The translations under genes and the position numbers were made by a program. A stretch of DNA of 64,000 bases from the NCBI GenBank assembly GCA_034666565.1, contig JAXDLN010000091.1, positions 3,968 to 67,967 of the forward strand, given 5' to 3'. The DNA comes from Chloroflexota bacterium. Lineage in GTDB: Bacteria; Chloroflexota; Dormibacteria; CF-121. This document shows, piece after piece, positions 38,135 through 64,000 of this stretch. A model generated the notes under the pieces. That model was not told the DNA's origin. It did no database searches and saw only the letters and a program-made list of their open reading frames with translations. Each line of letters starts with the position of its first letter. Within the stretch, counting starts at the first letter, position 1.

Positions 38135-39331
38135 TCAGGGGGCCTGCTCGCCCCCGTAAAGCACACGCTGCGGCATGCGGTGCAGGCTGACCACGCCATC
38201 GTCTGTCACACGTACCAGCTCGCCGACCTGAACGCCCGCTCGCTGATCGATCGTCACGACATTCGGTTGGATCACCAGCGTCATGTTCCGCTCGAACACG
38301 AAGTCCGGTACCGGCCCGTGGCTGCTCCCGGGAGTTCGGAGGATCGGCGGAAGGTAGCCGCCACCATAGCCGTGGACGAGGTCGTCGCAGGTGGTGAAGC
38401 CCTGGGTCTCGATCAGCGATGCCGCATCGACGATCGTCGACGCGGACACCCCGGGTGCAATGGTGCGCGCGACCTCATGAAATGCCTGCCAGGCCACGTC
38501 GTGGAGTCGCCGATAGGTCTCGGTCAGCTCGGCTTCGACGGTCACCGTCCTGAGAACCTGGCCCGAGTATGCGGCATAGGCCGCGCTCAACTCGAGGATG
38601 ATCGCGTCGCCGGCTTGCAGTGGACGATCGGTGAGGTCCTGCTGCGGCACGATACGGTCGGGATTGGCCATCGGCGTCGAGCTCAAGTAGAGAAAGTGCG
38701 GTTGGCCACCGCCGCGGATCGCGGCAGCAGCCGCCTCCGCCTGCAGTTCGAGCTCGGTGGCGCCGGGCACGGCGGCGCGAACCAGCGCCGCCAACGCCTG
38801 GTCGGTGATCGCCGCGGCGCGCGTCATCCACTCGAGCTCTTCCTCACTCTTGACCAGCCGTAGCCGGAGAAAATCCGCCGTTGCATCGACAAAGGTCCGG
38901 TCGCCAAGGCGACCGATCAGCCGCTGCTGCTCGCCGTACGGCACCGACCCCACCAGCCCCACCCGCAGGGTGGGCGGCATAGCAGCGAGCTCATCCGCCA
39001 CCGCGTCGACCGACCGCGTGCCGCCCCACCGGACTTCGGCACGGGCGACACGCCGCGCATGCGGCACGTGGTTGAAATATTGGACGAACAGCATCGGGTC
39101 CCCGCCGGGCTTCCACACAACGTAGGCGTCCTGGTGGCCGAGGAATCCCGTCAGGAAATGGACCTGTGCCTGCCCCTGCCTCGCATTGGCCGAGGTGCCG
39201 AAGACGACGAGCACATCGAGACGCTGATCGGCGCAGAGCTGGTCGACGGCGCGGCGCCGTCGACCCCACTCGGCGTCGGAGAACCCCCCACCCCGACCCT
39301 CCCCCGCAAGGGGGGAGGGAGCATCAGCCAA
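38135..39331 (-). CDS. M24 (creatinase/aminopeptidase P fold) protein with non-canonical metal site
   Basis: Creatinase-N-like region plus pita-bread domain (LVKSEEEL, GDAIILELS, YSGQVLRT, VHGYG, IQPN). Confidence 0.85.
   Translation of the reverse strand: MADAPSPLAGEGRGGGFSDAEWGRRRRAVDQLCADQRLDVLVVFGTSANARQGQAQVHFLTGFLGHQDAYVVWKPGGDPMLFVQYFNHVPHARRVARAEVRWGGTRSVDAVADELAAMPPTLRVGLVGSVPYGEQQRLIGRLGDRTFVDATADFLRLRLVKSEEELEWMTRAAAITDQALAALVRAAVPGATELELQAEAAAAAIRGGGQPHFLYLSSTPMANPDRIVPQQDLTDRPLQAGDAIILELSAAYAAYSGQVLRTVTVEAELTETYRRLHDVAWQAFHEVARTIAPGVSASTIVDAASLIETQGFTTCDDLVHGYGGGYLPPILRTPGSSHGPVPDFVFERNMTLVIQPNVVTIDQRAGVQVGELVRVTDDGVVSLHRMPQRVLYGGEQAP
39284..39319 (-). repeat. Short palindromic repeat, copy 5 (in-frame at the M24 N-terminus)
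   Basis: Minus strand CCCTCCCCC-CTTGC-GGGGGAGGG-TCGGGGTGGGGGG, encoding PSPLAGEGRGGG. Confidence 0.78.
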
Positions 39332-40391
39332 TCGTCTCTTTCAGCCAATCGGCCATCAGCGGCCGGTACTTGTACGAAATGTTGTTGCAGACGTGCGTCC
39401 CGTCCGGGTACATCACCAGCGTCGCGTTGGGGGCCTCCCGCGCGATCCGTTCGGCGTCCGCCGGCGGAAATAGGCCGTCCTTGGCGCCGTGGATGACGAG
39501 CAGCGGCTGGGTGACCTTGTCGAGGACGCCCTCGAGATTGAGCGTGTAGGCCTTGCGCCTGGCTTCGGCCTCATCCGCGGACTTTGTATAGAAGATGTAC
39601 CCGCCCCTGGTCAGGGGATTGAGATTGTCCCAGCAGTCGCCGAGGTTGTACGGCCCGGACAGTCCCACCACCGCGCGCAACCGCTTTTCGTAGGCAGCCG
39701 CGCGCGGGCCGTAGATGGCGCCCATGCTGATCCCCATCAGGCCGATCCGGTTGAGGTCGACGCCGACATCGCGTCGCTCCAGCTCATCGATCACCGGGGT
39801 GATCACCGATTCCCAGTTGACCCGGATCGGGAAGTGCACCGAGTTCTCGGATTGGCCCGGGCCGTCGATCGTCAGGGTCGCCATCCCGCGTCGCAGGAAC
39901 TCCTCCTCGATGAGAAAGAGCTCTTCCTTGGATGAGTCGAGTCCCGGGACGAGAAGCACGAGTGGCGCGCGGTCGATCTCTCGGGGGCGGCGGAGGTTAC
40001 CGGGAATGACATGACCCTCGAACGGGATCTCGACGCGCTCCGCCGGCGGATCGAGGTGCGGCAGCGTCTTTCGGTACACGGCGACCGACCGGTCGCGCAG
40101 CTCGGCGTGCTGGCGCAGGTCTTCGAACCAGAGGAACTTTCCGAGGTGATAGCACCAGGAAGCCCGCTGATAGCCGGCAGTCGCGGAGACGCTTCGGCTG
40201 TGTTCCTCAGCCTCACGCCCGAGCGCTTCGTGGACCTCGCCCACCGCCCGCCAGTTGGGTCCCCAGTCCTTCCAGTCGGTTGTCTTCCCCACCGTCCGGT
40301 CGAAGTCGTTGACGTCGATACCGTTGGCGACGAAGCGCGCTCGCCAGTGATGCGCCGCGACCTGAACGCGGTTGCCCGTTTCTACGCTCAT
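39324..40391 (-). CDS. Alpha/beta hydrolase, 2,6-dihydroxypseudooxynicotine hydrolase-like
   Basis: PGLDSSKEE, IDGPGQ, nucleophile GISMG, HGAKD, GTHVCNN. Family assignment from recall of DHPON hydrolase motifs. Confidence 0.85.
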   Translation of the reverse strand: MSVETGNRVQVAAHHWRARFVANGIDVNDFDRTVGKTTDWKDWGPNWRAVGEVHEALGREAEEHSRSVSATAGYQRASWCYHLGKFLWFEDLRQHAELRDRSVAVYRKTLPHLDPPAERVEIPFEGHVIPGNLRRPREIDRAPLVLLVPGLDSSKEELFLIEEEFLRRGMATLTIDGPGQSENSVHFPIRVNWESVITPVIDELERRDVGVDLNRIGLMGISMGAIYGPRAAAYEKRLRAVVGLSGPYNLGDCWDNLNPLTRGGYIFYTKSADEAEARRKAYTLNLEGVLDKVTQPLLVIHGAKDGLFPPADAERIAREAPNATLVMYPDGTHVCNNISYKYRPLMADWLKETIG

Positions 40392-41977
40392 CTGACGTTC
40401 TCCTTTAGTTGGATCGCCTCGCTAAGACTGGACCCGAGGTCCCCAAGCAGGATTGCGGCGCAGTTGCGGCCCGGAAGGCCCGAGACCGATCCGCCGGGGT
40501 GGGTGCAGGCGCCGGTTTGGTAGAGGCCCTCCACAGGCGTCCGATACGTCGACCAGCCTTCGACCGGACGGAAATGGCCACTCTGGTCCGGGGTGCTGGC
40601 CCCACCGTGGCACGATCCGTGCCAGTTGGCCGGGTTGCGGCGCTCCATATCGAGCGGGCTGTGCACATTTCGTCCGAGCACGATGCGGTCCGACAGGTTG
40701 GTCGTCAACGGCGCCAACGCCTCGAACAGCCGATCGGCCACCAGGTCTTTGACCTGGTCCCAGTGCGCCGGCCCTTCCACGAGTTCGTAAGGCAGAAAGC
40801 TGATCAGCTTGAAGGTGTGCTTGCCGGCGGGCGCTCGGGAAGGGTCGACGACGGTGGGCGTGATCGCCAGGAACACCGGATCCTCGAGGTCCAGCCGTCC
40901 GCTCCGGTAGGCCTGCAGCATTCGCTGCAGCGACCCGAGCGATTCGAGCCCGCCCATGGTAACGCTTTCCATCGCACCGCTCTCGGTGCGATACCGGGGC
41001 GCCTCACTCAACGCGTAGTGGGCGGCGAACATCGACAGGCTCGGTTTCCAACGGTCAATACCGGCGCGGAACTGGGGCGTGAGGTTCTCCTCGCCGACGA
41101 TGCCGGGCAGCTGGGCGATGTGAATGGTCGAGACCACCGCCCTGGAAGCGGCGTAGGTCGAGCCGTCGGCGGCCTCGACGCCGGTCGCACGTCCACCCTC
41201 GACCACGATCCTTGTAACCGGCTTCGATGTCAGGATGGTCCCGCCGTTTTCTTCGATAATCGCGGCGAGCGCGAGCGGCAAGCGGAGCGAGCCACCCTCG
41301 GGCAGGATCCAGGAAAAGCGCTGCCGGCCCGCGACCAGCGAAAACGCCAGCAGCCCGGTCTCGGGCTCATCCAGTGGATGCAGGGTCATGAACGCGATCC
41401 AGGCGAAGAAGGCGCGGACGTGATCATCGGCAAAGCGTTCACTGATGATGTCGAGCGCCGTCGAGCGTCGAATCTCCAGCATGCGTTGGCCGAGCTTGCT
41501 TCCCGCGGTGCGGGCGGCGATCTCCTGTGGCGGCCGCGGAGGATTCTCGCGCTCGTCGTTGATGATCGGCGCCATCGCCTGCCAGTCGTTGAGCAGCTCG
41601 CGGTATGCCTGCGCATCAGGCGGCGAGAAGCGGGCCAGCTCGGCGCAGGTGCGGTCCAGGTCGCGCCACATCGTGATGCTGCGGCCGTCGCGGAACGGCA
41701 TGGTGAAGACCGGGTCCGGGTACAGGTAGCGCAGCCCATACCGGTCGAGCTGCAACTCGTTGTTGCGCATCAGCGGGTTGCTCTGGATCAGGTTGTGCGC
41801 GGTAGAGCAGGGATCGTGGATGAAGCCGGGCAAGGTCAGCTCTTCGCAAGTGGTGTCGCCGCCGATGCGCGGCGCCCCCTCGAGGACCAGCACTTTGAAG
41901 CCCGCCTTCGCCGCGTAAGCGGCGGTCAGCAGGCTGTTATGGCCGGCGCCGGCGACCACGATGTCCCAGTCGCTCAG
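40388..41977 (-). CDS. FAD-dependent oxidoreductase, COG1233 (phytoene desaturase/PYROXD2-like); start apparently CTG 41977
   Basis: (M)SDWDIVVAGAGHNSL, GGDTT, HDPCSTAH, P.GGS..L, SPLDMER.N, GLYQTGACTHPGGSVSGLPGRN. Confidence 0.9.
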   Translation of the reverse strand: MSDWDIVVAGAGHNSLLTAAYAAKAGFKVLVLEGAPRIGGDTTCEELTLPGFIHDPCSTAHNLIQSNPLMRNNELQLDRYGLRYLYPDPVFTMPFRDGRSITMWRDLDRTCAELARFSPPDAQAYRELLNDWQAMAPIINDERENPPRPPQEIAARTAGSKLGQRMLEIRRSTALDIISERFADDHVRAFFAWIAFMTLHPLDEPETGLLAFSLVAGRQRFSWILPEGGSLRLPLALAAIIEENGGTILTSKPVTRIVVEGGRATGVEAADGSTYAASRAVVSTIHIAQLPGIVGEENLTPQFRAGIDRWKPSLSMFAAHYALSEAPRYRTESGAMESVTMGGLESLGSLQRMLQAYRSGRLDLEDPVFLAITPTVVDPSRAPAGKHTFKLISFLPYELVEGPAHWDQVKDLVADRLFEALAPLTTNLSDRIVLGRNVHSPLDMERRNPANWHGSCHGGASTPDQSGHFRPVEGWSTYRTPVEGLYQTGACTHPGGSVSGLPGRNCAAILLGDLGSSLSEAIQLKENVR

Positions 41978-42693
41978 GCGCTGGCTCCAAGGTAAAGGCG
42001 CCCGATCTCCGGATTATTGAGCACCGCCGAACCCAAGCCTTCCAGCCGGACCCGCCCGCTCTCCATCACGACGCCGTGGCTGGCGAGCCCCAGCCCGGAG
42101 CGCGCGTTCTGCTCGACCAGCAAGATGGTGCGGCCGGCCTGGTTCATGGCGCGAATGGTGTCGAAGACGATGGTGCGCGTCTTCGGATCCAGTCCCATCG
42201 ATGGCTCGTCGAGGATGACCAGCGACGGATCGAGCATCATCGCCCGCGCGAACTCGACGATCTTCTGCTGGCCACCCGACAGTGACGCGGCGGGCTCGTG
42301 GCGCCGTTCGCGCACGATTGGAAAGCTCTCGCACACCGCCTGCAGGCGTCGCTCCACGAGCGCCCGGTCATGCACGGTGTAGGCGCCCATGCGCACGTTC
42401 TCCCAGACCGTCATCGTGGGAAAAAGGCTTCGCTCCTGCGGCACCTGGACGATGCCGCGGCGCAAGATTTGTTGCGGGCTGAGCCCGGCGATCGACACAC
42501 CACGGAAACGAAGGTGCCCGAAACGCGGTCGTAGCAAGCCGCTAACGACCCGCAGCACCGTCGACTTCCCGGCGCCGTTGGGTCCGACGATGCAGGTGAT
42601 GGCGCCCTCCTCGACCGCGAGGTCGAGCTCGTGCAGGATGTCGCCGCCGCCGTAGCCGGCGGTCACCCCCTGCAGCTCGAGCAGTGGACCCAC
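41974..42693 (-). CDS. Branched-chain-type (LivF-like) ABC ATPase (start GTG 42693)
   Basis: GPNGAGKS, LSGGQQ, ILDEPSMGL, LVEQN. Confidence 0.92.
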   Translation of the reverse strand: MGPLLELQGVTAGYGGGDILHELDLAVEEGAITCIVGPNGAGKSTVLRVVSGLLRPRFGHLRFRGVSIAGLSPQQILRRGIVQVPQERSLFPTMTVWENVRMGAYTVHDRALVERRLQAVCESFPIVRERRHEPAASLSGGQQKIVEFARAMMLDPSLVILDEPSMGLDPKTRTIVFDTIRAMNQAGRTILLVEQNARSGLGLASHGVVMESGRVRLEGLGSAVLNNPEIGRLYLGASA

Positions 42694-42694
42694 C

Positions 42695-43426
42695 TCAAGT
42701 CCCCAGGTAGGCGTCGAGCACGGCCGGGTTCTCGCGCACTTCACGAGGATTCCCCTTAGCAATCGCGCGGCCCTGGTGCAACACGACGACCTCGTGGCAG
42801 AGATTCATCACAAAACCCATGTTGTGCTCGACCAGGAGGAAGGTCGTGCCCTGCCGGTTGAGCTCTCGGATACGCTCGGCGATCCGCTCCAGCAGGGCCG
42901 GGTTGACGCCGCCGGCGGGTTCATCGAGCAGCACCAGCTCCGGCCCAGCCATCATGACGGCGGCGAGTTCCAGCAGTTTGCGCTGCCCGTAGGAAAGAGC
43001 GCCGCCGAGCGTGCCCGCCACCTGGCTGATGTCCATGAACGCCAGCATCTCCATCGCCCGTTCTTTCTCGTGTCCCCACGCCCCGCGCGAGAGCAGCGCC
43101 TTTAACCCCGCGCGCCGCACCGGCACCAGCATGTTCTCGAGCGCGGTCAGCCGCGGAAAGATGCGGGCCAGCTGGAAGGTGCGTCCGATGCCCAGCGCAT
43201 AGATGCGGTCGGGGCCCATCCCGGCGATGGAGCGCGCTTTGAAATGCACCTCGCCGCCATCGGGCGCAATAAAACCCGTCACCAGGTTGAAGACGGTTGT
43301 CTTCCCCGAGCCGTTCGGACCGATCAGCCCGGTAATGGTGCCGGCCGGGACCGTGAGCGAGCAGGAATCGACCGCCACCACGCCACCGAACCGCTTGGAG
43401 AGGTCCTTGACCTCGAGCAAACTCAC
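42695..43426 (-). CDS. LivG-like ABC ATPase (start GTG 43426)
   Basis: GPNGSGKT, GIGRTFQ, LSYGQ, LLDEPAGG, LVEHNM. GTGA overlap. Confidence 0.92.
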   Translation of the reverse strand: MSLLEVKDLSKRFGGVVAVDSCSLTVPAGTITGLIGPNGSGKTTVFNLVTGFIAPDGGEVHFKARSIAGMGPDRIYALGIGRTFQLARIFPRLTALENMLVPVRRAGLKALLSRGAWGHEKERAMEMLAFMDISQVAGTLGGALSYGQRKLLELAAVMMAGPELVLLDEPAGGVNPALLERIAERIRELNRQGTTFLLVEHNMGFVMNLCHEVVVLHQGRAIAKGNPREVRENPAVLDAYLGT

Positions 43427-44481
43427 GGTGATGCCGCCTTGACGGCCTCGCGCGATCCGCGAGCGGTCGTTGTCGGTCCGGCCGCGCCCCGCCGCCAACG
43501 GTGCACGAGGTCGGCGACGGACGGCACGATGCCGCGCGGCAGCAGGAGGATCACGATCAGGAAGACCGCCGAGTAAAAGACCAGGTACAGCCGGCTCGCG
43601 CCGAATCGGTAGGCAAACTCCATCTGCGCCGGCTCGAGCAGCAGCGCGCCGATCACCGGCCCGCTCACGGTCCCGAGCCCGCCGAGGAAGGCCATCAACA
43701 CCATCGAGATCCCAATCAGAGGGTCGAAGGCGAACTGCGGATAGAGGTAGGTGACGTAGTAGCCGTAGACGGCACCGATCATGCCCACCAGCACGGCGCT
43801 GATGACGAACGCCGTCAGCTTGAAGCTGCGCGTCGGTACGCCGACGGCGAGCGCCTTGTCCTCGTCATCGCGGATGGCCAGCAAGCCAAGGCCAAACTTT
43901 GACCGGCGGATCGACCAGGAGATCACCAGCGCGAGCACCGCCAGCACCAGCATCGCGTAGTAGTAAGGGACGTTGAAGAAACCGCCGCCCCAGTCGTGCG
44001 AGTACGGCAAGGCCAGGCCGGCTCCGCCACCGGTCAGCTTGACGAGGTTCTCGCCGAGCAGCTGCAGCATGAACATGAAGGCGATCGTGACGATGACGAA
44101 GGTCGCCGCACGGGTGCGGAGCGCGACCCACCCGATCCCGACCGCGAGCACGGCCGTGAGCAGGCCGGCCACCGGCACCAGGACGAATGGGAGATATCCG
44201 GGCGCCACGTTGAGATGATTCAGCAGCAGGCCAAAGGAATAGGCGCCGAAGCCGAAGAAGGCCGCGTGACCGAGTGAGATGTAGCCGGTGTAGCCGCCCA
44301 TGATGTTCCAGGCGCTGGCCAGTCCGACGTACATGACCGTGAAGACAGCCATGCCGGTGGTCGCGGGATCGGGCGCGATCAGCGGCAGGATGAGCGCGAG
44401 GATGCCGACCAGGACCAGACCGAGCCCCTTGAGCGCCGCCAGGCGACCGGCGCGGATCGCTATGGTCGGAGTCCCGCTCAT
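43423..44481 (-). CDS. LivM-like ABC permease
   Basis: AWNIMGGYTGYISLGHAAFFG, SKFGLGLLAIRDDE, GGLGTVSGP. Confidence 0.92.
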   Translation of the reverse strand: MSGTPTIAIRAGRLAALKGLGLVLVGILALILPLIAPDPATTGMAVFTVMYVGLASAWNIMGGYTGYISLGHAAFFGFGAYSFGLLLNHLNVAPGYLPFVLVPVAGLLTAVLAVGIGWVALRTRAATFVIVTIAFMFMLQLLGENLVKLTGGGAGLALPYSHDWGGGFFNVPYYYAMLVLAVLALVISWSIRRSKFGLGLLAIRDDEDKALAVGVPTRSFKLTAFVISAVLVGMIGAVYGYYVTYLYPQFAFDPLIGISMVLMAFLGGLGTVSGPVIGALLLEPAQMEFAYRFGASRLYLVFYSAVFLIVILLLPRGIVPSVADLVHRWRRGAAGPTTTARGSREAVKAASP

Positions 44482-45353
44482 ATCCGGTCACGGACACGAA
44501 CGCCGTAGAGCCCCTGCGGACGGACGATCAGGATCGCCACCAGGATGACGAAGAAGACGAAGTTGGCCCAGACCGGCGAGATCAGGACCTGGGTGATGTC
44601 CTCGCTGACCAGCATGATAAGCGCGGCGATGACGGCGCCCCGCAGGCTGCCGAGGCCGCCCAGCACGATGATGGTCAGCAGACGCGAAATCAGGTCGTAG
44701 TGGCTGCCGGGGTTGAAGGCATTCGTGATGCCGAAGACCACCCCGCCGGCTGCGGCGGTGGCCACCCCGATGCCGAAGGCGATCGCCGCCACCCGGTCGA
44801 CGTCGACGCCGATCAATTGCGCCGCCGTGCGGTTCAGCATGGTGGCACGGATGGCACCACCGAACGACGTGCGGTAGAGCATCAGGAAGAGCGCGCCCAG
44901 GATCGTAAGGCACAGCACGAAGCCGAAGACATAGACCCAGGTGATGTGAAAGCCGAAGACCGCGAAGCTGGCGGTTTCGTACCAGGCGCGCAGCTCGACG
45001 AAGTTGGTGGTGAAGACGTAGCCGAGCACGCCCTCGATGCCCAGCGCGAGCGCGTAGGTGACGAGCACAGACAGCGCCTCGCGGTCAGTCTTGAGGGGAC
45101 GGATGAACACGAGCTGCAGTACGACTCCCAGCGCGAACATCGCGGGCATGGTCACCACCAGGCTCAGGAACGGGTCCATGTGGAGCGAGCGGAAGAGCGC
45201 GAAGCTGAGGTAGGCGCCCAGCACCACCAGCGCGCCGTGGCCGACGTTGATGATGCGCATCACGCCGAAGATCAGGGTGAGGCCGGACGCCATCAGGGCA
45301 TAGACGCCACCGGTGAGGATGCCGAGCACCGCCGCCTCGAGAACCAGCGTCAT
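44478..45353 (-). CDS. LivH-like ABC permease
   Basis: GGVYALMASGLTLIFGVMRIINVGHG, LGGLGSLRGA, RPQGL. Confidence 0.92.
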   Translation of the reverse strand: MTLVLEAAVLGILTGGVYALMASGLTLIFGVMRIINVGHGALVVLGAYLSFALFRSLHMDPFLSLVVTMPAMFALGVVLQLVFIRPLKTDREALSVLVTYALALGIEGVLGYVFTTNFVELRAWYETASFAVFGFHITWVYVFGFVLCLTILGALFLMLYRTSFGGAIRATMLNRTAAQLIGVDVDRVAAIAFGIGVATAAAGGVVFGITNAFNPGSHYDLISRLLTIIVLGGLGSLRGAVIAALIMLVSEDITQVLISPVWANFVFFVILVAILIVRPQGLYGVRVRDRI

Positions 45354-46716: not shown

Positions 46717-46728
46717 ACAAACGATTGC
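46717..46728. promoter_or_regulatory. LacI-type operator 1
   Basis: ACAAACGATTGC between the divergent SBP and LacI-1. Confidence 0.65.
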
Positions 46729-46767
46729 CCTATGTTAGGCACGGGTGAAAGGCTTGTCAATGAGGAC

Positions 46768-47829: not shown

Positions 47830-47846
47830 GGAGAGCGCCATTGTCA

Positions 47847-47858
47847 ACAAACGTTTGC
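47847..47858. promoter_or_regulatory. LacI-type operator 2
   Basis: ACAAACGTTTGC upstream of the dehydrogenase. Confidence 0.7.
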
Positions 47859-47884
47859 GCACGCCCGCGATCGGAGGCACTGCG

Positions 47885-48935: not shown

Positions 48936-48947
48936 GCAAACGTTTGC
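48936..48947. promoter_or_regulatory. LacI-type operator 3
   Basis: Perfect palindrome GCAAACGTTTGC. Confidence 0.75.
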
Positions 48948-49009
48948 GCCAGAGCGGACGGGTTAACAAGGGGTTAACGTGTGGTCGGGCGGTGAAACCG
49001 CCCGGGCGT

Positions 49010-50086: not shown

Positions 50087-50112
50087 CCGCTGGTCGGCTG
50101 CCCTCCGTCGCT

Positions 50113-50124
50113 GCAAACGATTGC
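50113..50124. promoter_or_regulatory. LacI-type operator 4
   Basis: GCAAACGATTGC. Confidence 0.7.
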
Positions 50125-51263: not shown

Positions 51264-51267
51264 CCGG

Positions 51268-54796: not shown

Positions 54797-54802
54797 CCGA
54801 GG

Positions 54803-55871: not shown

Positions 55872-56321
55872 TCATCCATCGATGCTTCCGTCGGGGTCGT
55901 AGCTGTAGCCCGCCTGCTCCAGGCTGGCTGCGCCGCCGTAGAACCAGAGCAGCACGGCCCGTTCCGTGTCCGAGGTGTTGGTGAAGCCGTGCGCTTCTCC
56001 CGGATGCGCGACAACCACGTCACCCGGCGCCATCCGGACGTCGACGTCGCCGACCCGCGCCAGACCCTGGCCTTCGATCAAGTATTCGATCTCCTCAGCA
56101 TTGCTGTGCCGATGAATGTCATGCCGTGCCTTGGGCGGGAAGGTCGTGATCCCAAACACGCTCTTTTTGGCACCGCCGCGTTCCTGCGTGATCACCCACT
56201 GGACAGCCATGTTGATCCAGCCCTCGTCGGCCCGGTGCGACAGGGTGGGCGCCACCTCGGCCACCCGCACTTTTTGCGGGTGCGAATCGACGACCCTTCG
56301 TTGTTTCTTGGGTACCGCCAT
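55872..56321 (-). CDS. Cupin-domain protein
   Basis: HDIHRHSNAEEIEY and GDVVVAHPGEAHGF. Confidence 0.88.
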   Translation of the reverse strand: MAVPKKQRRVVDSHPQKVRVAEVAPTLSHRADEGWINMAVQWVITQERGGAKKSVFGITTFPPKARHDIHRHSNAEEIEYLIEGQGLARVGDVDVRMAPGDVVVAHPGEAHGFTNTSDTERAVLLWFYGGAASLEQAGYSYDPDGSIDG

Positions 56322-57371: not shown

Positions 57372-57402
57372 GTCGTTTTCCTCCTCTTCTTTGAACACGG
57401 CG

Positions 57403-58359
57403 TTAGGTCCGAATCAGCGATGGTCGAAACAGCACCTCGTTGAATGCGACGGCAGCGACCATGACGAGTCCGACGGCGACGAATTGCCAGCTGGTGTCGA
57501 TACCGGCGAGCACGAAGCCATTGGGGATGACACCAATCAGGATCACGGCGAGCGTTGTGCGGATCACTGAGATTTCGCCGCCGCGGATGGTGGCGCCCCC
57601 GACCACGACCGCCGCGATCGCCAGCAGCTCGAGGCCGCCGCCGGCATCGCCGCGGGCGCTGAAGACCCTCGAGGTATAGATCACGCTCGCGATCCCGGCA
57701 AGCAGGCCGCTGGCGCCGTAGACCGCCATCCGGACGGCGCCGATGCGAACCCCGCTGAAACGGGCCGCCAGCTCGTTGATCCCGACCGCCACCAGCTTGC
57801 GCCCCGAGGCCGTCATCCGGGTCAGGACGTAGACGACCAGGATCACGAGCGCCCAGATCAGGGTCTGCCCTGGCACGGTGCCAAGGTAGGCCTGGCCTGG
57901 CAGCTCGAAGGAGGTCGGGAAATTGGAAAAGGCGCCGCCATTGAGGATGCCCTGCGCCAGCCCTCGGTAGAGCGCCAGCGTGCCGAGCGTTACCAGCAGC
58001 GGATGGAGGCGCAGGAGGACGACCATGGCCCCGTTCGCGATGCCACAGAGCAGCGCAATCCCCAGCGCCAGGCCAATCGCCACCCCGATCGGCACGCCAT
58101 GCAGCGAGGCGTAGCCGAGCACCACCGAGGAGAGCCCCAGGATGGCGCCGACCGACAGATCGATGCCACCGGAGGCGATCACGATCGCCATGCCAAGCGC
58201 GATGATGCCGTTCTCGGTGTCGAGCCGCGCCATGTTCAGCAGGTTCGACGAGGTGAGGAAATCGGGAGAGAGCGCGGTGAAGACGGCCATGGCGCCGAGG
58301 AGGAGCAGCACCAGGCCGGCGGAGCGTGCCAGGTCGCGCGGAATGGCGAGCCGGTTCAT
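57403..58359 (-). CDS. Sugar ABC permease (LsrD/RhaQ-like; start ATG 58359)
   Basis: GGIDLSVG, LLVTLGTLALYRG, LELLAIAAVVVGG. TGATG overlap. Confidence 0.9.
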   Translation of the reverse strand: MNRLAIPRDLARSAGLVLLLLGAMAVFTALSPDFLTSSNLLNMARLDTENGIIALGMAIVIASGGIDLSVGAILGLSSVVLGYASLHGVPIGVAIGLALGIALLCGIANGAMVVLLRLHPLLVTLGTLALYRGLAQGILNGGAFSNFPTSFELPGQAYLGTVPGQTLIWALVILVVYVLTRMTASGRKLVAVGINELAARFSGVRIGAVRMAVYGASGLLAGIASVIYTSRVFSARGDAGGGLELLAIAAVVVGGATIRGGEISVIRTTLAVILIGVIPNGFVLAGIDTSWQFVAVGLVMVAAVAFNEVLFRPSLIRT

Positions 58360-59354
58360 CAACGTGCCCCGGCCCAGCGCTGCACGCGGAAGCGGTCGCG
58401 CGCCACAGCGAGCAGGATGAAGGCGCCGTAAGCCAGGGGAATCCAGACGCCGGGCACGCCCAGGATGACGATGCCGTCGGTGATGACACCGATCAGCAGG
58501 GCACCGATCAAGGGCGCGAGGTCGGTCCCTCGTCCGCCGCGGATGTCGGTGCCGCCGATGGCACAGGCGGCGATCACCTGCAGCACCAGGTTGGTCCCCA
58601 CCACCGAGGTCTGGATGCCGCCCAGCTCGCCGAGGTAGATGACCGCGCCCAGACCCGCAAGCAGACCTGATAGGGCAAAGGCCACCAGCAGCTCGCGCCG
58701 GATAGGGACGCCCATGATGCCAGCCGCGCGCCGGTTGCCGCCAGTCGCCATCAGGTCCCGGCCCCACTTGGTGTTTCGCCGAGCGACGGCGAGCACGGCA
58801 AACGCCACCAGCACCACGAGCACCGGCATCGGCATCCCGAGGAACCGCCCCGCACCCAGGATGTCGGCCGAGTCCGGGACGGAGACCACGTTGCGAGTGC
58901 CCGACCACAGCAGCGCGGCGCCCTGAAAGGCGTAGAGCGTCCCCAGCGTCGCCACGATCGAGGGGACGCGGGTGCGGGAGACGAGCAGGCCGTTGACCAG
59001 CCCGGCGAGCAACCCGACGCCGAGCCCCACGGCGAGCGTCGGCCAGGTGCTGCCGGTGGAGAGCGCGACTGGACCCGCAACGAACCCGGCTAGGGCCAGG
59101 ATGGAACCCACCGAGACATCGATCTCACCCGCAAGGATCACGAGGTTCTCGCCCAGTGCCAGGCAGGCGACCACCGCAACCGACAGTACGATGCTGCGAA
59201 AGTTATCGATCGACAGGAAGCCACGGGCCGTGATCGAGAAGAAGACCACCGCCACAAGTACGGTGGCAAGCGCAATGACATCGGGGTGGGAGACGAACAG
59301 CCCCACGCCCGGGCGCCGGTCCCCACGGAGCGCGACCGGTTTCAAGACGGTCAT
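58359..59354 (-). CDS. Sugar ABC permease (LsrC/RhaP-like)
   Basis: GEIDVSVG, SIVATLGTL, WGRDLMATGGN, IAACAIGG..I.GGRG. Confidence 0.9.
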   Translation of the reverse strand: MTVLKPVALRGDRRPGVGLFVSHPDVIALATVLVAVVFFSITARGFLSIDNFRSIVLSVAVVACLALGENLVILAGEIDVSVGSILALAGFVAGPVALSTGSTWPTLAVGLGVGLLAGLVNGLLVSRTRVPSIVATLGTLYAFQGAALLWSGTRNVVSVPDSADILGAGRFLGMPMPVLVVLVAFAVLAVARRNTKWGRDLMATGGNRRAAGIMGVPIRRELLVAFALSGLLAGLGAVIYLGELGGIQTSVVGTNLVLQVIAACAIGGTDIRGGRGTDLAPLIGALLIGVITDGIVILGVPGVWIPLAYGAFILLAVARDRFRVQRWAGAR

Positions 59355-60853
59355 GACGGGCTCTCCGAGCGATGGCCCAGGGCAGCGCCGCCGATGTTCA
59401 ACTCGGTAAGCGCCTCACCCGAGAATTCCGAGACCAGCCTCCCTTCACGCATGACGGCTACCCGATCCGAGAGCAGCAACAGCTCCTTGATCTCGGAGGA
59501 GATCAGGAGGATGGCGACGCCGTCGCTGGTCAACTGATCGATCAGGCGATAGATCTCGGCGCGTACTCCCATGTCGATGCCACGGGTGGGCTCGTCCAGG
59601 ATCAGGACACGAGGCGTGAGCGCCAGCCAACGGGCGAGCAGCACCTTTTGCTGGTTGCCGCCGGACAGCGAGGCCACCGGGTCCCCAAGCTGGCCGCGAA
59701 GACGCAGCGGCGCCAGCGCCTGCTCCACAAACTGGACTTCGCGGCTGCGAGAGATCAAGCCACGACGGCGGAAGCGGCCCAGCGCCGGCAAGGAAACGTT
59801 GTCGCGAACGCTCAGCGGCATAAAGAGCCCTTGTGACTGGCGCTCCTCCGGAACATAGCCCAGGCCGGCGCGCACCGTCTGCTCGATACTGCGCAGGCGC
59901 AACGGCTGCCCATCGATCCGGACCGTCCCGCCGCTAGGGCGAGCGTAGCCAAAGAGCGTCTGCGCAAGCGCGCTTCGTCCGGAGCCGACCAGACCGGCCA
60001 TGCCGAGCACCTCGCCGTATCGAAGCTGGAGGCTCACGTCGGCGAAGTACCCGGTACGGCTGAGCCCGCTGATCTCGAGGGCGACCCGGCCCTCTACCCG
60101 CCCCGTCTTGCGTGCGAACTGCTCGATCGGCCGGCCCAGCATGTGGCGGACCAGCGCCACCTCGTTGAACTGACCCACGGGCCCGCTGACCACCGTCTCT
60201 CCGTCGCGCATGACGGTGATCAGATCGGCAATCTGCATCACCTCGGCGAGCCGGTGGGAGACGTAGAGCACCGCGACGCCGGACGCCGTCAAGGTGCGCA
60301 CCACCTGCAACAGCCGCTGCGCCTCCCATTCGTCGAGCGCAGCAGTGGGCTCGTCCATGATGACTACTCGAGCGTCGAGCATCAGCGCCCGTGCGATAGC
60401 GACCAGCTGGCGGCTCGCCGGGGTCAGCTCCTCGACCAGTCGCGAAGGATCGACCTCGACGCCGAGCCGCCCCAGCACCTCGCGTGCGCGACGGCGCATC
60501 GCCCAAGCACTCACCAACCCGGCCCTGCCTCGGGGCCGAGGGCGGCCCACGTAGAGGTTTTCGATGACGCTCAGCGAGTCGTAGAGCAGCAGCTCTTGCG
60601 GGATGAGGACGATGCCCCGCGATTCGGCGTTGCGGGCGGAGTCGAAGACGGTGACGACGCCCTGGAATTCGATCTGCCCGCTGCTTGGCGGGATGACGCC
60701 GGCGGCGATCAAAGCCACCGAGCTCTTGCCAGCGCCGTTCTCGCCGACGATGGCATGCACCTCGCCGGCGGCCAGCGCCAGCGAGACGCCGCGGACTGCG
60801 ACCGTGGCGGCGTAGGTCTTGTGGATGTCCTGCAGGGCGAGGACGTTCGTCAT
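59351..60853 (-). CDS. Sugar ABC ATPase (LsrA/RhaT-like)
   Basis: GENGAGKS, IMDEPTA, VSHRL, LSGGNQQK, ILDEPTRGID. Confidence 0.92.
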   Translation of the reverse strand: MTNVLALQDIHKTYAATVAVRGVSLALAAGEVHAIVGENGAGKSSVALIAAGVIPPSSGQIEFQGVVTVFDSARNAESRGIVLIPQELLLYDSLSVIENLYVGRPRPRGRAGLVSAWAMRRRAREVLGRLGVEVDPSRLVEELTPASRQLVAIARALMLDARVVIMDEPTAALDEWEAQRLLQVVRTLTASGVAVLYVSHRLAEVMQIADLITVMRDGETVVSGPVGQFNEVALVRHMLGRPIEQFARKTGRVEGRVALEISGLSRTGYFADVSLQLRYGEVLGMAGLVGSGRSALAQTLFGYARPSGGTVRIDGQPLRLRSIEQTVRAGLGYVPEERQSQGLFMPLSVRDNVSLPALGRFRRRGLISRSREVQFVEQALAPLRLRGQLGDPVASLSGGNQQKVLLARWLALTPRVLILDEPTRGIDMGVRAEIYRLIDQLTSDGVAILLISSEIKELLLLSDRVAVMREGRLVSEFSGEALTELNIGGAALGHRSESPS

Positions 60854-61012
60854 GGCGGCCCGCCGTTGACCGGGCTCCAGCACATCACGAACCGCTGCGG
60901 CGCTTCCTCGCACGGATCTCCCAGACCCTCTTCCTTAATCGGGATGTTGACCACCCGATTGACTGCCGTGCCCCTTGCCGGAACGGAATGCTAGCGCAGA
61001 GTTGGCAATCTG

Positions 61013-61024
61013 TCAAACGTTTGC
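61013..61024. promoter_or_regulatory. LacI-type operator 5
   Basis: TCAAACGTTTGC between the divergent ABC ATPase and LacI-4. Confidence 0.7.
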
Positions 61025-61103
61025 CATACTGCGGAGGCATGGTCGGGAATGGCTCAGGAATGGGAAGGGTTACCTTGTGATCAAGCAGCTGAAGAGCGAA
61101 GCG

Positions 61104-62168
61104 ATGCAGGCGAGGGGAAAGGCGGGGGAGCGCGATGACCTGCGCCAGGGACGGGCAATCGCCACCCTGGAGGATGTCGCACGGGCGGCCGGCGTGCACT
61201 ACTCGACGGTGTCGCGTGCGCTGGATCCGAACAAGGTCTGGCGCGTCAACGTCGTCACGCGCAAGCATGTCCAGGCGGTCGCCCAACGGATGGGCTACCA
61301 GCGCGACATGGTGGCGAGCGGCCTCAAGCGAGGGCGCACCCATACGATCGCGGTGGTAGTGGCCGACCTCGGCAACCCCTTCATCGCTCCGGTGCTGCGC
61401 GGCATCGCCAACCGCCTGGAGCAGGCCGGCTTCATGTCAATGATCAGCGACACCCAGGATGACTCGGCGCGCCTCGAGCGCATCCTCAACCACCTGTTGA
61501 GCCGCCGCGTCGATGCCATCATCCTGACCGCCGCGCACCTCGGCGACGGCCCGGTGCTGCGGCGCATCAGTCGCCAGGGCACCCCGGTGGTGCTGGCGGT
61601 GCGCAACGTGCCGGGGATTCGCTTGCCGGCCTGCACCGACGATGACCTGCTGGGTGGGACGCTCGCCGCCCGCCACCTGTTGGCGCTCGGCCATCGACGT
61701 GTCGCTCAGCTGCGCGGGCCCGCGGATGTCTACTCTTTCGTGGAACGCGGCGCCGGCTTCAGCAAGACGGTCGCTGCCGCTGGCGCGGTCGAGGTTGAAG
61801 TGCTGTCCACTGGGCTCACACCCACACTCGATGAGGGGGAGCGGCTGATGCGCCTGCTGCTCGACCGCAAGCGGGTAATGCCGACCGCGGTCTTCGCCCA
61901 CAACGACCTGATGGCGCTGGGCGCCCTGGCTGTGATGCGCGAGCGCGGCCTCAACTGCCCCAAGGACTTCTCCGTGATCGGTTACAACGACTCCCCGCAG
62001 GTCGATCGCGTGATGCCGCCGCTCACCACCATCCGGCAACCCGGCGAAGAGTTGGGTCGGACCGCCGCCGAGATGACGGTGGCGCTGCTCACCTCACCCG
62101 ACCGCCCGCCAGCGTCGCGCAGCCTCGCCCCCACGCTGGTGGTGCGCGAGTCGACCGCCCCGCGCTAA
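61104..62168 (+). CDS. LacI-family regulator 4 (paralog of regulators 2 and 3)
   Basis: MQAR extension, TLEDVARAAGVHYSTVSRAL, YQRDMVASGLKRGRTHT. Confidence 0.92.
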   Translation: MQARGKAGERDDLRQGRAIATLEDVARAAGVHYSTVSRALDPNKVWRVNVVTRKHVQAVAQRMGYQRDMVASGLKRGRTHTIAVVVADLGNPFIAPVLRGIANRLEQAGFMSMISDTQDDSARLERILNHLLSRRVDAIILTAAHLGDGPVLRRISRQGTPVVLAVRNVPGIRLPACTDDDLLGGTLAARHLLALGHRRVAQLRGPADVYSFVERGAGFSKTVAAAGAVEVEVLSTGLTPTLDEGERLMRLLLDRKRVMPTAVFAHNDLMALGALAVMRERGLNCPKDFSVIGYNDSPQVDRVMPPLTTIRQPGEELGRTAAEMTVALLTSPDRPPASRSLAPTLVVRESTAPR

Positions 62169-62175: not shown

Positions 62176-63663
62176 TCAGGCGTTCTGCCGTTGCTCTAGA
62201 TAGCCGCGCACCTCGTCATATTCCGTTTCCGGCTTCCGCTTCAGGCCGAAGACATCCAGCTCCCAGCCGCACTTGGCCGCTAGGTAGTCCCGCGACGCCT
62301 CCGCGAGCGACCGCACGCGACCGAGGTCGACGCCCAGCATTGCTCCGCGCCACTTCTTGAGCTCGCCGCCGATCCACACGATGTCGACGTTCTTCGTGTC
62401 CGCCCCCAGGACCACCGTTCCGATCGCGTTGTTGAGCGGCAGGTTGTTGACGTCCTCGGCGCGGATCGCCACGATGTCCGCCTCCTTGCCGGGTGTGAGC
62501 GAACCGACTTTGTCGCCCAGCCCGATATGGCGCGCCCCCTGGATGGTGGCGAACTCGAGAACGTCGCGGTTCGTCACCCAGGCGGGCGGCGTCTCGCCAC
62601 GGTAGCGGAGCGCCGCCGATTGCATCCGCTGGGTGGCGAGGACGCAGCGCATCTGGCTGAACATGTCGGTGGCCAGGCTGATCTCGACATCGACGCTAAG
62701 GCTGGGGCGGATCCCGAAATCGAGCGCCTTCTGGATCGGCGGCGTCCCGCCGGACAGACCGATCTGCTCGTCGGAGGTGGGCGCCAGCGTCACCCCGATG
62801 CCGGCGTCCTTGAAGTGTTGCCAGACGGCGTCGGCCATGTCGGTGGCATGGATGACCGTGACGTCGGGGGCGAGGAGGCCTCCGCGGCCCAGCTCCTCCA
62901 TCTCCCTCGAGGAGGCCGGACCGAGGACACCGTCGAAGGTGATCGACAGCCCGTGGGCGCGGGCAAACTTGATCAGCTCGGACGCCGGCCGGGGCCGCCG
63001 GAAATCGATAGCGAGCCGCACCGTCGTGAGTGCCGAGGTGAATTGATCGCGCAGGCGGGTGAGGTCCTCGGGCCAGTGCTCGGCCCACGCCCCCGCGTTG
63101 GGCGGAGCCGATGCATGCACCGCTCGAATCCCCGCCTCCCGGTAGGCCTTGAACACCGCGTCCGAGTGGGCAGGGGTCCGGGTATTGTGCGAGAAATCGA
63201 GGATCGAGGTAACGCCGGAGTCGATCGCGCCAAGCATGCTGACCAGGTCGCCCGCGTACATGTCCTCGGGCCGGTAGTGGAGCGCGATGCCGCCGTGGGT
63301 GGTCGCCATATAGCTGGGCAGGTCGGCATCGACGATCAGGCGCCGGAACTGGTTCTGCCAGCAGTGGCGGTGGCCGTCGACGAGTCCCGGGATCAGGATC
63401 ATGCCCCCCATCTCGACCATCAGCGCCTGGCCGTCGCGGGCCGCGGCGCTGAGGTCCTCGCCGACCGCCTTGATGGTCGAGCCCTCGATCAGCACGTCGC
63501 CCTGCGCCAGGTCTTTGATCTCGGGATCCATGCTGATGACAACCGCGCCCCGCAGCAGCACCTGGCGCCGCGGGTCGGGGCGCGTCAGGCGTTCGCCAAG
63601 CTGCTGCCACTCGGCGTCGGGGACTTCGTGATACCGACGGGTCGCGGTTCCGGCCTTGTGCAT
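62176..63663 (-). CDS. Metal-dependent amidohydrolase (AtzA/MTA-SAH deaminase-like; start ATG 63663)
   Basis: PGLVDGHRHCWQ (HxH), VIHAT, LSVDVE, ATIQGA, GSLTPGKEAD. GAGGAGAGGGAG SD. Confidence 0.9.
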   Translation of the reverse strand: MHKAGTATRRYHEVPDAEWQQLGERLTRPDPRRQVLLRGAVVISMDPEIKDLAQGDVLIEGSTIKAVGEDLSAAARDGQALMVEMGGMILIPGLVDGHRHCWQNQFRRLIVDADLPSYMATTHGGIALHYRPEDMYAGDLVSMLGAIDSGVTSILDFSHNTRTPAHSDAVFKAYREAGIRAVHASAPPNAGAWAEHWPEDLTRLRDQFTSALTTVRLAIDFRRPRPASELIKFARAHGLSITFDGVLGPASSREMEELGRGGLLAPDVTVIHATDMADAVWQHFKDAGIGVTLAPTSDEQIGLSGGTPPIQKALDFGIRPSLSVDVEISLATDMFSQMRCVLATQRMQSAALRYRGETPPAWVTNRDVLEFATIQGARHIGLGDKVGSLTPGKEADIVAIRAEDVNNLPLNNAIGTVVLGADTKNVDIVWIGGELKKWRGAMLGVDLGRVRSLAEASRDYLAAKCGWELDVFGLKRKPETEYDEVRGYLEQRQNA

Positions 63664-63710
63664 CTCCCTCTCCTCTTTACCGAGCGCGGTTCCGTCCTGT
63701 GGTATTTTAA

Positions 63711-63722
63711 GCAAACGTTTGC
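63711..63722. promoter_or_regulatory. LacI-type operator 6
   Basis: Perfect palindrome GCAAACGTTTGC between the divergent amidohydrolase and dehydrogenase. Confidence 0.75.
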
Positions 63723-63764
63723 CGCGGTGCGCGGCGTTTCGACCACGCAGAGGAGGGAGCGGCG

Positions 63765-64000
63765 ATCACCGAGTCCTTGACCCACAAGCTCGGCTGGATC
63801 GGCACCGGCCGGATGGGCAGTGCCATGGTCTCGCGCTTGCTCGAGCGCGGCTGTGAGGTGTCGATCTACAACCGGACGCGCGGCAAAACCGAAGGCTTCC
63901 GCGAGCAGGGGGCCCGCATCGTGGATGCGCCGGCCGACCTCGCCGATCGCGACATCGTCTTTACCTCCGTCTCCCGTTCGGAGGACTTCCGGGACGTCCT
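63765..64000 (+). CDS. Second beta-hydroxyacid dehydrogenase paralog, 5' part only (runs off window); start ATC 63765 or TTG 63777
   Basis: LGWIGTGRMG.AM..RLLERG.EV..YNRTR.K, and DLADRDIVFTSV, closely matching the 47885 gene. Confidence 0.85.
   Translation, partial: MTESLTHKLGWIGTGRMGSAMVSRLLERGCEVSIYNRTRGKTEGFREQGARIVDAPADLADRDIVFTSVSRSEDFRDV

Follow-up and report, generated by a model that had tools for sequence, protein, structure and literature searches.

A probable composite LacI-family regulon with an accessory uptake block in a genome of the Dormibacteria

We analysed a 64,000-nucleotide stretch of DNA from a Chloroflexota bacterium of the class Dormibacteria (hereafter the window; positions 3968-67967 of contig C91 in genome G000, an assembly of 3.64 Mb in 121 contigs that is 93.8% complete). 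The right-hand part of the window, from position 38135 to its end, had been set apart in a preliminary description as a 26-kb catabolic island with several LacI-type repressors, three importers and an unusual set of enzymes. Because the DNA of the window is 66% G+C, reading frames were picked by third-position G+C (GC3). Domains were annotated with Pfam and NCBIfam profiles, the equivalog cut-offs of NCBIfam being used as the threshold of identity, and further comparisons relied on PDB sequence searches, tblastn, blastn, dinucleotide shuffles and Logan contigs. Every gene named in the preliminary description was recovered at its place by Pfam and NCBIfam, including all three importers (one Liv-type and two sugar-type importers of the CUT2 class). 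The region contains four LacI genes. The two beta-hydroxyacid dehydrogenases (bHADs) of that description also exist, the second lying only partly inside the window. The genes are as follows.

38135..39331, minus strand: M24a, Creatinase_N plus M24 fold, last gene of the Liv-importer operon (Pfam)
39324..40391, minus strand: ABH, FrsA-like alpha/beta hydrolase (Pfam; PDB 2JBW)
40388..41959, minus strand: FAD oxidoreductase of the CrtI/CrtO (phytoene desaturase) family, amine-oxidase fold (Pfam Amino_oxidase)
41974..45353, minus strand: LivF, LivG, LivM and LivH, ATPases and permeases of a HAAT-type importer (Pfam)
45416..46642, minus strand: SBP6, Peripla_BP_6 lipoprotein, Liv-type binding protein (Pfam)
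46732..47829, plus strand: LacI1, repressor of the conserved core (Pfam)
47816..48850, plus strand: bHAD1, beta-hydroxyacid dehydrogenase of the 3-hydroxyisobutyrate dehydrogenase (HIBADH) / tartronate-semialdehyde-reductase family (Pfam)
48944..50086, plus strand: LacI2, tandem paralogue of LacI3 (Pfam)
50187..51263, plus strand: LacI3 (Pfam)
51268..52272, minus strand: Gfo, Gfo/Idh/MocA oxidoreductase, last gene of a probable 9.6-kb operon (Pfam)
52273..55843, minus strand: CUT2 importer no. 2, with permease (52273-53232), double ATPase (53276-54796) and RbsB-like lipoprotein SBP2 (54803-55843) (Pfam, NCBIfam, PDB)
55872..56321, minus strand: Cupin_2 protein of 149 residues (Pfam)
56337..60913, minus strand: CUT2 importer no. 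3, with RhaS/LsrB-like lipoprotein SBP3 (56337-57398), two permeases (57403-58380 and 58359-59354) and double ATPase (59351-60913) (Pfam, NCBIfam, PDB)
60975..62168, plus strand: LacI4, repressor travelling with the inserted block described below (Pfam)
62176..63714, minus strand: AmidoH, PRK08204-type TRZ/ATZ-like amidohydrolase (NCBIfam, 388.4 bits against a cut-off of 391)
63777..64694, plus strand: bHAD2, cut by the window at 64000, at the head of an operon that continues outside it

The preliminary description had proposed extending the contig past 64000, and doing so showed that the operon starting at bHAD2 continues onto the next contig. Contig C91 stops 1.7 kb past the window, and its last 127 nt are the first 127 nt of contig C14; the break lies inside the M24b gene (window ~65585-65711), with an exact 127-nt overlap. 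The four genes that follow bHAD2, all on the plus strand and identified by tblastn and NCBIfam, have these extrapolated window coordinates.

~64684-65943, plus strand: M24b, 419 residues
~65940-66953, plus strand: E1alpha, pyruvate dehydrogenase (PDH)/acetoin type
~66920-67915, plus strand: E1beta, PDH/acetoin type
~67912-69369, plus strand: aldehyde dehydrogenase (ALDH) resembling succinate-semialdehyde dehydrogenase (SSADH)

A lipoprotein gene and then leuDC come after ALDH. The locus extends from 38135 to ~69369 in extrapolated coordinates; it continues ~5 kb past the window, for a total of ~31 kb rather than 26 kb.

All four repressors combine a PF00356 helix-turn-helix (HTH) domain with a PF13377/PF00532 effector domain, the architecture of the LacI/GalR family, and share the recognition helix H-x-S-T-[IV]-S-R. 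LacI2, LacI3 and LacI4 are mutually 62-70% identical (LacI2 and LacI3, 70%) and 35% identical to LacI1. The preliminary description had the genes linked by one operator motif, and the palindrome CAAACGWTTG agrees with this: it occurs at 6 sites in the window, covering every transcription unit, where dinucleotide shuffles give a chance expectation of 0.14 matches, and at 10 sites in the whole 3.64-Mb genome. Each transcription unit of the locus is preceded by a site; none is present before the cupin or SBP2 genes. The sites in the window (no strand assigned) are listed below.

46718..46727: operator 1, CAAACGATTG, in the divergent region between SBP6 and LacI1; at the same place in ~28 related loci
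47848..47857: operator 2, CAAACGTTTG, after the LacI1 stop and ahead of the probable bHAD1 start; kept in relatives
48937..48946: operator 3, GCAAACGTTTGC, upstream of LacI2
50114..50123: operator 4, GCAAACGATTGC, upstream of LacI3
61014..61023: operator 5, TGTCAAACGTTTGCCA, in the divergent region between the ATPase of importer no. 3 and LacI4
63712..63721: operator 6, GCAAACGTTTGC, in the divergent region between AmidoH and bHAD2; also in G001, a genome of the same genus

The motif is kept at orthologous intergenic positions in ~30 Dormibacterota loci, and the region of operator 5 contains an identical 16-mer at the same place in L072, L073 and G001. Beyond the Dormibacterota loci and in other families, it recurs in L070 (4 sites), L072/L073, a Nocardioides locus (L069), a Streptomyces locus (L075) and G053, a genome of another family. 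These sites thus show what is expected of LacI/GalR operators, namely CG-centred palindromes in promoters, enriched over chance and kept in relatives. The locus resembles LacI/GalR regulons of the PurR (PUR box), RbsR and CytR type in its repressors, which join an HTH to a periplasmic-binding fold, in the 10-12-bp palindrome GCAAACGTTTGC in divergent promoter regions, and in its putatively autoregulated repressor genes. It differs from them in having four paralogous repressors of two subtypes and one motif over ~31 kb, with no equivalog to a named regulator.

Comparison with related genomes showed that the locus is composite. By blastn, the four nearest relatives (L003, L004, L005 and L040; 85-90% DNA identity) align collinearly with the window between gltB and the LacI3 stop (51265), and homology resumes at 64693, the start of M24b. 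Positions 51266-64692 are thus a 13.4-kb accessory insertion that is absent from the nearest relatives. In these relatives M24b directly follows LacI3 (blastn synteny), and the same layout, the uninterrupted form, lies on one contig of G001 (G001:C260). What had been described as one coherent island is instead a conserved core (unit A) split by this insertion (unit B). An assembly chimera as the origin of the insertion was ruled out by two Logan contigs: one of 17.8 kb, independently assembled from run X1, covers window positions 49800-52800 together with L055:2300-4536, with zero mismatches and both junctions, and one of 689 nt from a different soil sample (X3) spans the 51265/51266 junction.

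Within the genus, an AmidoH orthologue is found in 1 of 29 genomes (G001), on a 6.9-kb contig with two permease genes, an ATPase gene, LacI4, a broken AmidoH and bHAD2; the contig stops shortly after bHAD2. This layout suggests that a co-assembled strain may carry the block at the same insertion site. The broken gene (G001:C122, locus L068, 4448-5911) is the sole AmidoH orthologue in 60 relatives; it consists of three pieces (77-94%) with a gap of ~150 nt and is either a pseudogene or an assembly error. No SBP3 match at E <= 1e-60 was found in the 60 relatives. We also observed that the C91/C14 break falls within M24b and that the block contig of G001 stops where M24b would start, as would be the case if the samples hold a mixture of strains, some carrying the insertion and others lacking it.

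The core was traced by tblastn of all island proteins against 46 loci. The loci related by the FAD protein, nearly all of them from soil genomes of Candidatus Dormiibacterota (some labelled Chloroflexi), include 45 Dormibacterota-type loci across which that protein is 65-94% identical. About 25-30 Dormibacterota loci share the arrangement in which bHAD-LacI1 diverges from SBP6-LivHMGF-FAD-ABH (LivFGMH being syntenic in ~30), and in most core loci M24b, E1alpha and E1beta lie upstream of bHAD. A LacI1 orthologue is present in every core locus. Of 36 genomes in the same family, 23 carry an M24b orthologue (at least 88% identity) and 21 carry ABH; the core is conserved in about 60% of the family. 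Other families of the class have relatives at 42-58% only. One contig of the Acidimicrobiia carries FAD, ALDH, bHAD, M24b and E1ab (E1alpha and E1beta) together. Mesorhizobium loci with 31% FAD homologues were set aside, their context being unrelated (an indolepyruvate-oxidoreductase-like enzyme, a cyclase and a peptide-type ABC importer).

The inserted block is a conserved unit elsewhere, with the same operator and linked to its own bHAD, E1ab and M24 genes. In L070, SBP2 (79%), ATP2, AmidoH (72%) and LacI4 (72%) diverge from importer no. 3, cupin (78%), E1alpha, E1beta and an M24b-type gene (57%); in L072 and L073, AmidoH-LacI4 diverges from importer no. 3, cupin and bHAD. In the Nocardioides locus importer no. 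2 lies beside importer no. 3, together with a fused E1, E2 and E3, and an enolase-superfamily gene is present in that version. LacI4 orthologues (62-72%) occur in L070, L072 and L073, where cupin orthologues (74-78%) come after SBP3, and orthologues of importer no. 2 (60-79%) adjoin importer no. 3 in L069 and L070. Homologues of SBP3 at 60-80% identity are common in metagenomes and Actinomycetota. Within the same genus as the window, six genomes (G001, G004, G011, G014, G027 and G029) have a ~40% AmidoH paralogue lying divergently beside a 54-56% M24b paralogue. In G053, a LacI1-type gene, bHAD, E1ab, M24b, E2 and an LLM monooxygenase are found together, as are a bHAD-cupin-M24b trio and many operator sites. 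The modules therefore do co-occur in other genomes, and the condition that the preliminary description had set against its own reading, that they never do so, is not what we found, because L069, L070, L072, L073 and G053 combine them. We conclude that unit B is an accessory, horizontally mobile uptake-and-feeder block that has become inserted in a conserved cluster, the trunk operon of which it now drives.

These comparisons bear on whether the locus works as a whole. It might instead be a chance mosaic in which three unrelated standard systems happen to be neighbours, namely valine-type enzymes with an importer for branched-chain amino acids and two further importers, one rhamnose-like and one ribose-like; each would have its own LacI, and the operators would merely be alike. 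That unit B is an insertion fits such a mosaic, as do the 35% identity of LacI1 to LacI2-4 and the nearest solved relatives of the binding proteins, which bind rhamnose, ribose and Leu/Ile/Val. The similarity of the binders is weak, however, falling under every equivalog cut-off: SBP2 scores 97 bits with RbsB (cut-off 337) and SBP3 scores 201 with RhaS (cut-off 342) and 125 with LsrB (cut-off 384), the PDB relative of SBP3 being 5BQ3 (2e-44), while SBP6, which has a lipobox (LSAC) readable in the sequence, has amino-acid binders as its nearest PDB relatives at merely 1e-16. No rhamnose or ribose catabolic genes were found by Pfam in the window region. In L070 a single operon unites unit-B genes with E1ab and M24b, the six genomes named above have AmidoH-like genes next to M24b-like ones, and here the bHAD2 of unit B leads the trunk operon from behind a shared operator. 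We therefore regard a chance mosaic as improbable.

The preliminary description had noted the absence of a sugar kinase, isomerase, aldolase and ring-hydroxylating oxygenase, and Pfam indeed detected no kinase, isomerase, aldolase or Rieske oxygenase domain in 38135-64000. Its further claim of a mismatch with standard pathways was corroborated by NCBIfam, for which no enzyme of the locus, in window and extension, attains equivalog-level identity. PDB sequence searches with the binding proteins, FAD protein, ABH, M24a, AmidoH and cupin yielded a close relative for ABH alone (2JBW) and no inferable ligand.

The Liv-importer operon of unit A ends in the FAD, ABH and M24a genes. ABH aligns at full length (residues 16-353, E 1e-44) with 2,6-dihydroxy-pseudo-oxynicotine (DHPON) hydrolase, 2JBW, and its GxSxG nucleophile elbow and Asp and His blocks coincide with those of that enzyme, giving a Ser-Asp-His triad; the earlier designation of a DHPON-hydrolase-like enzyme is thereby confirmed. 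ABH also matches AntI and Ayg1, retro-Claisen C-C hydrolases that shorten polyketides. The FAD protein was compared with gamma-N-methylaminobutyrate oxidases of the MAO/MABO type; it has the Amino_oxidase fold, but its nearest families are CrtO (NCBIfam, 284 bits against a cut-off of 1000) and CrtI (PDB 4DGK, 3e-14). Its gene has no ATG, GTG or TTG 5' of the codons for VVAGAGHN (41959-42000), its homologues start ~8 residues earlier (DVVVAGAGHN), and the in-frame 5' region past the TAA stop reads ...RLSDWDIVVAGAG; the likely translation start is therefore a CTG or ATC overlapping the LivF stop (CCTGA). M24a had been called non-canonical, and rightly so: at the five metal-ligand positions of Pyrococcus furiosus prolidase it reads E/Q/G/Q/G, in place of the dinuclear-metal ligands (Asp, Asp, His, Glu, Glu) of M24 metallopeptidases. 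Its orthologues are restricted to the nearest relatives, and more distant relatives at 37-42% (family F20) have the identical ligand loss. A peptide, PLAGEGRGGG, and variants of it recur at protein termini, namely at the N-terminus of M24a (39280-39331), the C-terminus encoded at C14:11313-12539 and the N-terminus encoded at L038:11912-12874.

In the trunk, bHAD1 and bHAD2 are 72% identical to each other, and bHAD1 scores best with TIGR01505 (159 bits against a cut-off of 341). M24b has its best family match, over near full length, in the dimethylsulfoniopropionate (DMSP) lyase DddP, at 120.5 bits against the NF043017 cut-off of 600, and scores 92 bits with the ectoine hydrolase DoeA (cut-off 613); its ligand positions read D/C/H/E/E, with Cys in place of the second Asp. 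Like the non-peptidase M24 proteins DddP, creatinase and DoeA, M24a and M24b have a Creatinase_N domain and a pita-bread fold, DddP being the best family of M24b; unlike them, M24b lies far under the DddP and DoeA cut-offs and has the Cys substitution, and M24a is without all five ligands. E1alpha and E1beta match TIGR03182 (325 bits) and PRK09212 (370 bits, above the subfamily cut-off) as a thiamine pyrophosphate (TPP)-dependent pair. ALDH is SSADH-like (580 bits against a subfamily cut-off of 646) and also resembles 2,5-dioxovalerate dehydrogenases.

The E1 pair brings to mind an acetoin/2,3-butanediol-type or branched-chain 2-oxoacid (valine/pantoate-type) cluster, in which E1ab would be the key dehydrogenase, bHAD would be of the 3-hydroxyisobutyrate type and ALDH would act as a semialdehyde dehydrogenase. 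The resemblance of E1alpha/E1beta to PDH/acetoin-type E1, the HIBADH match of bHAD at 138 bits, the Liv-type importer, and the E2 and E3 genes in the versions of Roseobacter-group plasmids and G053 all point that way. As in the acetoin dehydrogenase system (AcoA, AcoB, AcoC, AcoL), a heteromeric TPP-dependent E1alpha/E1beta is encoded in a catabolic operon. In contrast to that system, the locus is without E2 (AcoC) or E3 (AcoL), none following E1beta and the E2 and LpdA genes of the genome sitting with other complexes, and E1 is always paired with M24 and bHAD and usually with an SSADH-like ALDH. An acyl-CoA dehydrogenase or hydratase is equally absent from the locus, ALDH is SSADH-like rather than methylmalonate-semialdehyde-dehydrogenase-like, control is by LacI rather than AcoR, and such pathways offer no role for M24b, cupin and amidohydrolase, which are invariably linked. 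A cluster of this kind is very unlikely here.

In the inserted block, the SBP3 and cupin genes are separated by 15 nt, and 60913-51268 is therefore probably a single 9.6-kb operon. The cupin has full His/His/Glu/His metal motifs, and Gfo is IolG-like (118 bits against an NCBIfam cut-off of 355). AmidoH, described earlier as an atypical amidohydrolase, is so: the enzyme and its orthologues have an intact HxH, beta-6 His and beta-8 Asp, lack the HxxE block that marks TRZ/ATZ (cog0402) deaminases and have Asp at the position of the beta-5 His. Plasmid homologues of AmidoH (41-47%) lie in unrelated gene contexts. The two sugar-type importers share with the CUT2 systems RbsABC, RhaSTPQ and LsrABCD their Peripla_BP_4 lipoproteins, BPD_transp_2 permeases and fused double ATPase, and differ from them in scores far under the RbsB, RhaS and LsrB cut-offs, in the placement of two systems, a cupin and Gfo in one operon, and in the lack of a kinase or isomerase.

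Importers of this kind raise the question of a nitrogen-free substrate, that is, the non-phosphorylative oxidation of a sugar, polyol, 6-deoxyhexose, pentose or sugar acid in a Weimberg-like or diketo-hydrolase-like route. Gfo would then be a 1-dehydrogenase, AmidoH or ABH a lactonase or beta-diketone hydrolase and M24b a lyase or dehydratase, and ALDH would oxidise the final semialdehyde; we give this assignment of roles, like the route as such, rather little credence. LacI control, the CUT2 importers with the RhaS-like SBP3, and the lack of a kinase, isomerase and aldolase in the window region all suit it. So do the cleavage of beta-diketones by relatives of ABH, the FAH-family hydrolase and ThuA in the Pacificitalea version, the enolase-superfamily gene in Nocardioides and the likeness of ALDH to 2,5-dioxovalerate dehydrogenases. 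It is at odds with the absence of a sugar-acid dehydratase (enolase superfamily, IlvD/Edd or DapA type) from window and extension, and with the three proteins of amide/amidine-hydrolase type, the HAAT-type importer, the amine-oxidase-fold flavoprotein and the RidA gene that adjoins M24 in Paenarthrobacter.

The match of ABH leads to another comparison. The lower nicotine pathway of plasmid pAO1 in Paenarthrobacter nicotinovorans comprises a ketone dehydrogenase, DHPON hydrolase, gamma-N-methylaminobutyrate oxidases and succinate-semialdehyde dehydrogenase. The locus shares with it a DHPON-hydrolase homologue with its triad, an amine-oxidase-fold flavoprotein and an SSADH-like terminal enzyme, and in relatives the hydrolase gene comes after a molybdenum hydroxylase gene of the xanthine dehydrogenase (XDH) family. 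The differences are that the flavoprotein here is CrtI/CrtO-like rather than MAO-like, that M24, E1ab, cupin and sugar importers are added, that regulation is by LacI, and that the window has neither a 6-hydroxynicotine oxidase nor a dihydroxypyridine hydroxylase. Pfam found no molybdenum hydroxylase (MoCoBD, CoxS or CoxM domains) in 38135-64000; such genes lie beside ABH homologues only in G053 and L037/38/42. In G053 an XDH-family molybdenum-cofactor subunit is translationally coupled to the ABH homologue. In L037, L038 and L042, a CoxSLM-type molybdenum hydroxylase set with coxD/E/F-like genes directly follows ABH (L038:8152-15071). The large subunit of the L038 type has the motif AYRGAGR, the form II CoxL type, and this Cox-type enzyme is therefore probably not a true CO dehydrogenase.

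Taken together, we consider it reasonably probable that the locus is a composite regulon under LacI-family control, built of two units, through which a single family of small polar compounds is taken up and degraded. Unit A comprises two divergent operons that share operator sites, SBP6-LivHMGF-FAD-ABH(-M24a) and LacI1-bHAD-...-M24b-E1alpha-E1beta-ALDH. Unit B, between LacI3 and M24b, comprises the probable 9.6-kb operon (ATPase-permease-permease-SBP3-cupin-SBP2-ATPase-permease-Gfo), LacI4, AmidoH and bHAD2, the last of which now heads the M24b-E1ab-ALDH operon. Without inducer, LacI1 and its LacI2/3/4 paralogues would sit on the CAAACGWTTG palindromes and keep the promoters shut; compounds or intermediates of the pathway would bind the repressors and release them. 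The three importers would deliver related substrates, to be processed in unit A by FAD-dependent oxidation followed by ABH hydrolysis, and in unit B by Gfo oxidation, the metal cupin and the atypical amidohydrolase. Both feeders may converge on a common intermediate, which the trunk (bHAD, the Cys-substituted DddP-like M24b, the TPP-dependent E1 and the SSADH-like ALDH) could turn into a dicarboxylate resembling succinate, together with an acyl or aldehyde fragment. We regard the pathway as probably undescribed and its regulatory frame as ordinary.

Several observations weigh against this reading. Unit B is missing from the nearest relatives and for that reason is dispensable for unit A, so that it could act on a different substrate. 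Palindromes of this CG-centred LacI kind are common, and the shared motif may stem from the paralogy of the repressors and not from an inducer in common. To judge from its sequence, M24a, with all five metal ligands lost, may be non-catalytic, AmidoH is without HxxE, and E1 has no E2 or E3 in the locus. The partners of the trunk also vary widely by lineage: FAH, ThuA and SDRs in Roseobacter-group plasmids, LLM and the molybdenum hydroxylase subunit in G053, and hydantoinase in Haloferax.

The preliminary description had suggested a glycosylated or polyhydroxy N-heterocycle as the substrate. A nitrogen heterocycle, cyclic amide or amidine, free or glycosylated, is likewise our own suggestion, a tentative one. 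It draws on the DHPON-hydrolase homologue, whose relatives are coupled with molybdenum hydroxylase genes (G053, L037/38/42), on the amine-oxidase-fold flavoprotein, on the three amide/amidine-hydrolase-type proteins (M24 and amidohydrolase folds), on RidA beside M24 in Paenarthrobacter and on the SSADH-like terminal ALDH, an end enzyme of the kind seen in the pathways for nicotine, pyridine and vitamin B6. A sugar-like or glycosylated form is suggested by LacI control, by the pair of CUT2 importers, by Gfo in this locus and by ThuA on the plasmids of the Roseobacter group. The lack of any ring hydroxylase or glycosidase in the window tells against a heterocycle or glycoside, as do the absence of the deaminase HxxE from AmidoH and the very dissimilar sets of partners that these trunk enzymes have in other phyla. 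Vitamin B6, pyridine (pyr), allantoin/glyoxylate, hydroxyproline, sulfoquinovose, DMSP, pantothenate and methylthioadenosine pathways were compared with the Pfam inventory and rejected, each covering 2-4 enzymes without its own signature genes here.

The trunk is found well beyond this class. With M24b as query, a database search gave no fewer than 8000 proteins at E <= 1e-40, the best 120 at 85-94% identity. Orthologues at 55-66% are encoded on plasmids of cultured Phaeobacter, Tritonibacter, Pacificitalea, Streptomyces and Paenarthrobacter; no published function for them was found in the literature. In Phaeobacter, Tritonibacter and Pacificitalea the neighbourhood comprises a sugar ABC importer, SDRs, ThuA, a bHAD-like gene, M24, E1a, E1b, a lipoyl protein, SSADH, E2 and LpdA (M24 at 65% and SSADH at 55% identity in the Phaeobacter/Pacificitalea plasmids), with an FAH-family hydrolase near the cluster in Pacificitalea. 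The Streptomyces version has LacI, a binding protein, bHAD (56%), M24 (66%), SSADH (60%), VOC, a fused E1, E2, flavin reductase and LLM, and that of Paenarthrobacter has RidA, M24, a bHAD-like gene, SDR and LpdA. A 38% M24b relative in Haloferax lies beside an ALS-type TPP enzyme, a bHAD-like gene, a cupin and hydantoinase A/B. Literature searches covering DHPON hydrolase, LacI in Dormibacterota, the cluster of Phaeobacter, the surroundings of the sulfonamide (sad) genes and a survey of SAR11 binding proteins yielded nothing on these clusters.

Some further observations concern the surroundings of these genes. On the plasmid of Paenarthrobacter sp. R1 (L077, 9190-16458), the M24b homologue (56%), RidA, bHAD-like, SDR and LpdA cluster adjoins the sulfonamide-degradation flavin reductase gene sulR/sadC and several insertion sequence (IS) elements. 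Outside the window, another operator-type site, CAAACGATTG, lies at C42:3936, flanked by the genes of a GntR/FadR-type regulator and of a second Liv-type binding protein; in L032, L043 and L047, a pair of GntR/FadR regulator and Liv-type binding-protein genes with the same motif between them lies a few kb downstream of ABH. The C42 gene pair may belong to the regulon. Two more operator-type sites, 34 bp apart (C119:292988 and 293022), lie between an E1beta paralogue and DppA-like (M55) and TrpD genes, with LeuB-like and aconitase-like genes downstream; no link between these sites and the island or its regulon could be shown.

Dormibacterota are abundant, uncultured soil bacteria whose diet is little known, and this genome is the richest version of the locus seen, with an amino-acid-type and two sugar-type importers and private enzymes joined to the same trunk under one operator. 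The locus could represent two feeder arms on an undescribed, multi-phylum trunk that degrades a common environmental nitrogen heterocycle, cyclic amide or amidine and its glycoside, with M24, the HxxE-less amidohydrolase and the DHPON-hydrolase homologue carrying out ring-opening reactions new to their folds; we put this forward as a speculative possibility. The three binding proteins and four repressors are handles for ligand discovery, and once the substrate is identified, a nutrient flux common to soil and marine bacteria would be accounted for and chemistry could be assigned to several atypical enzyme variants.

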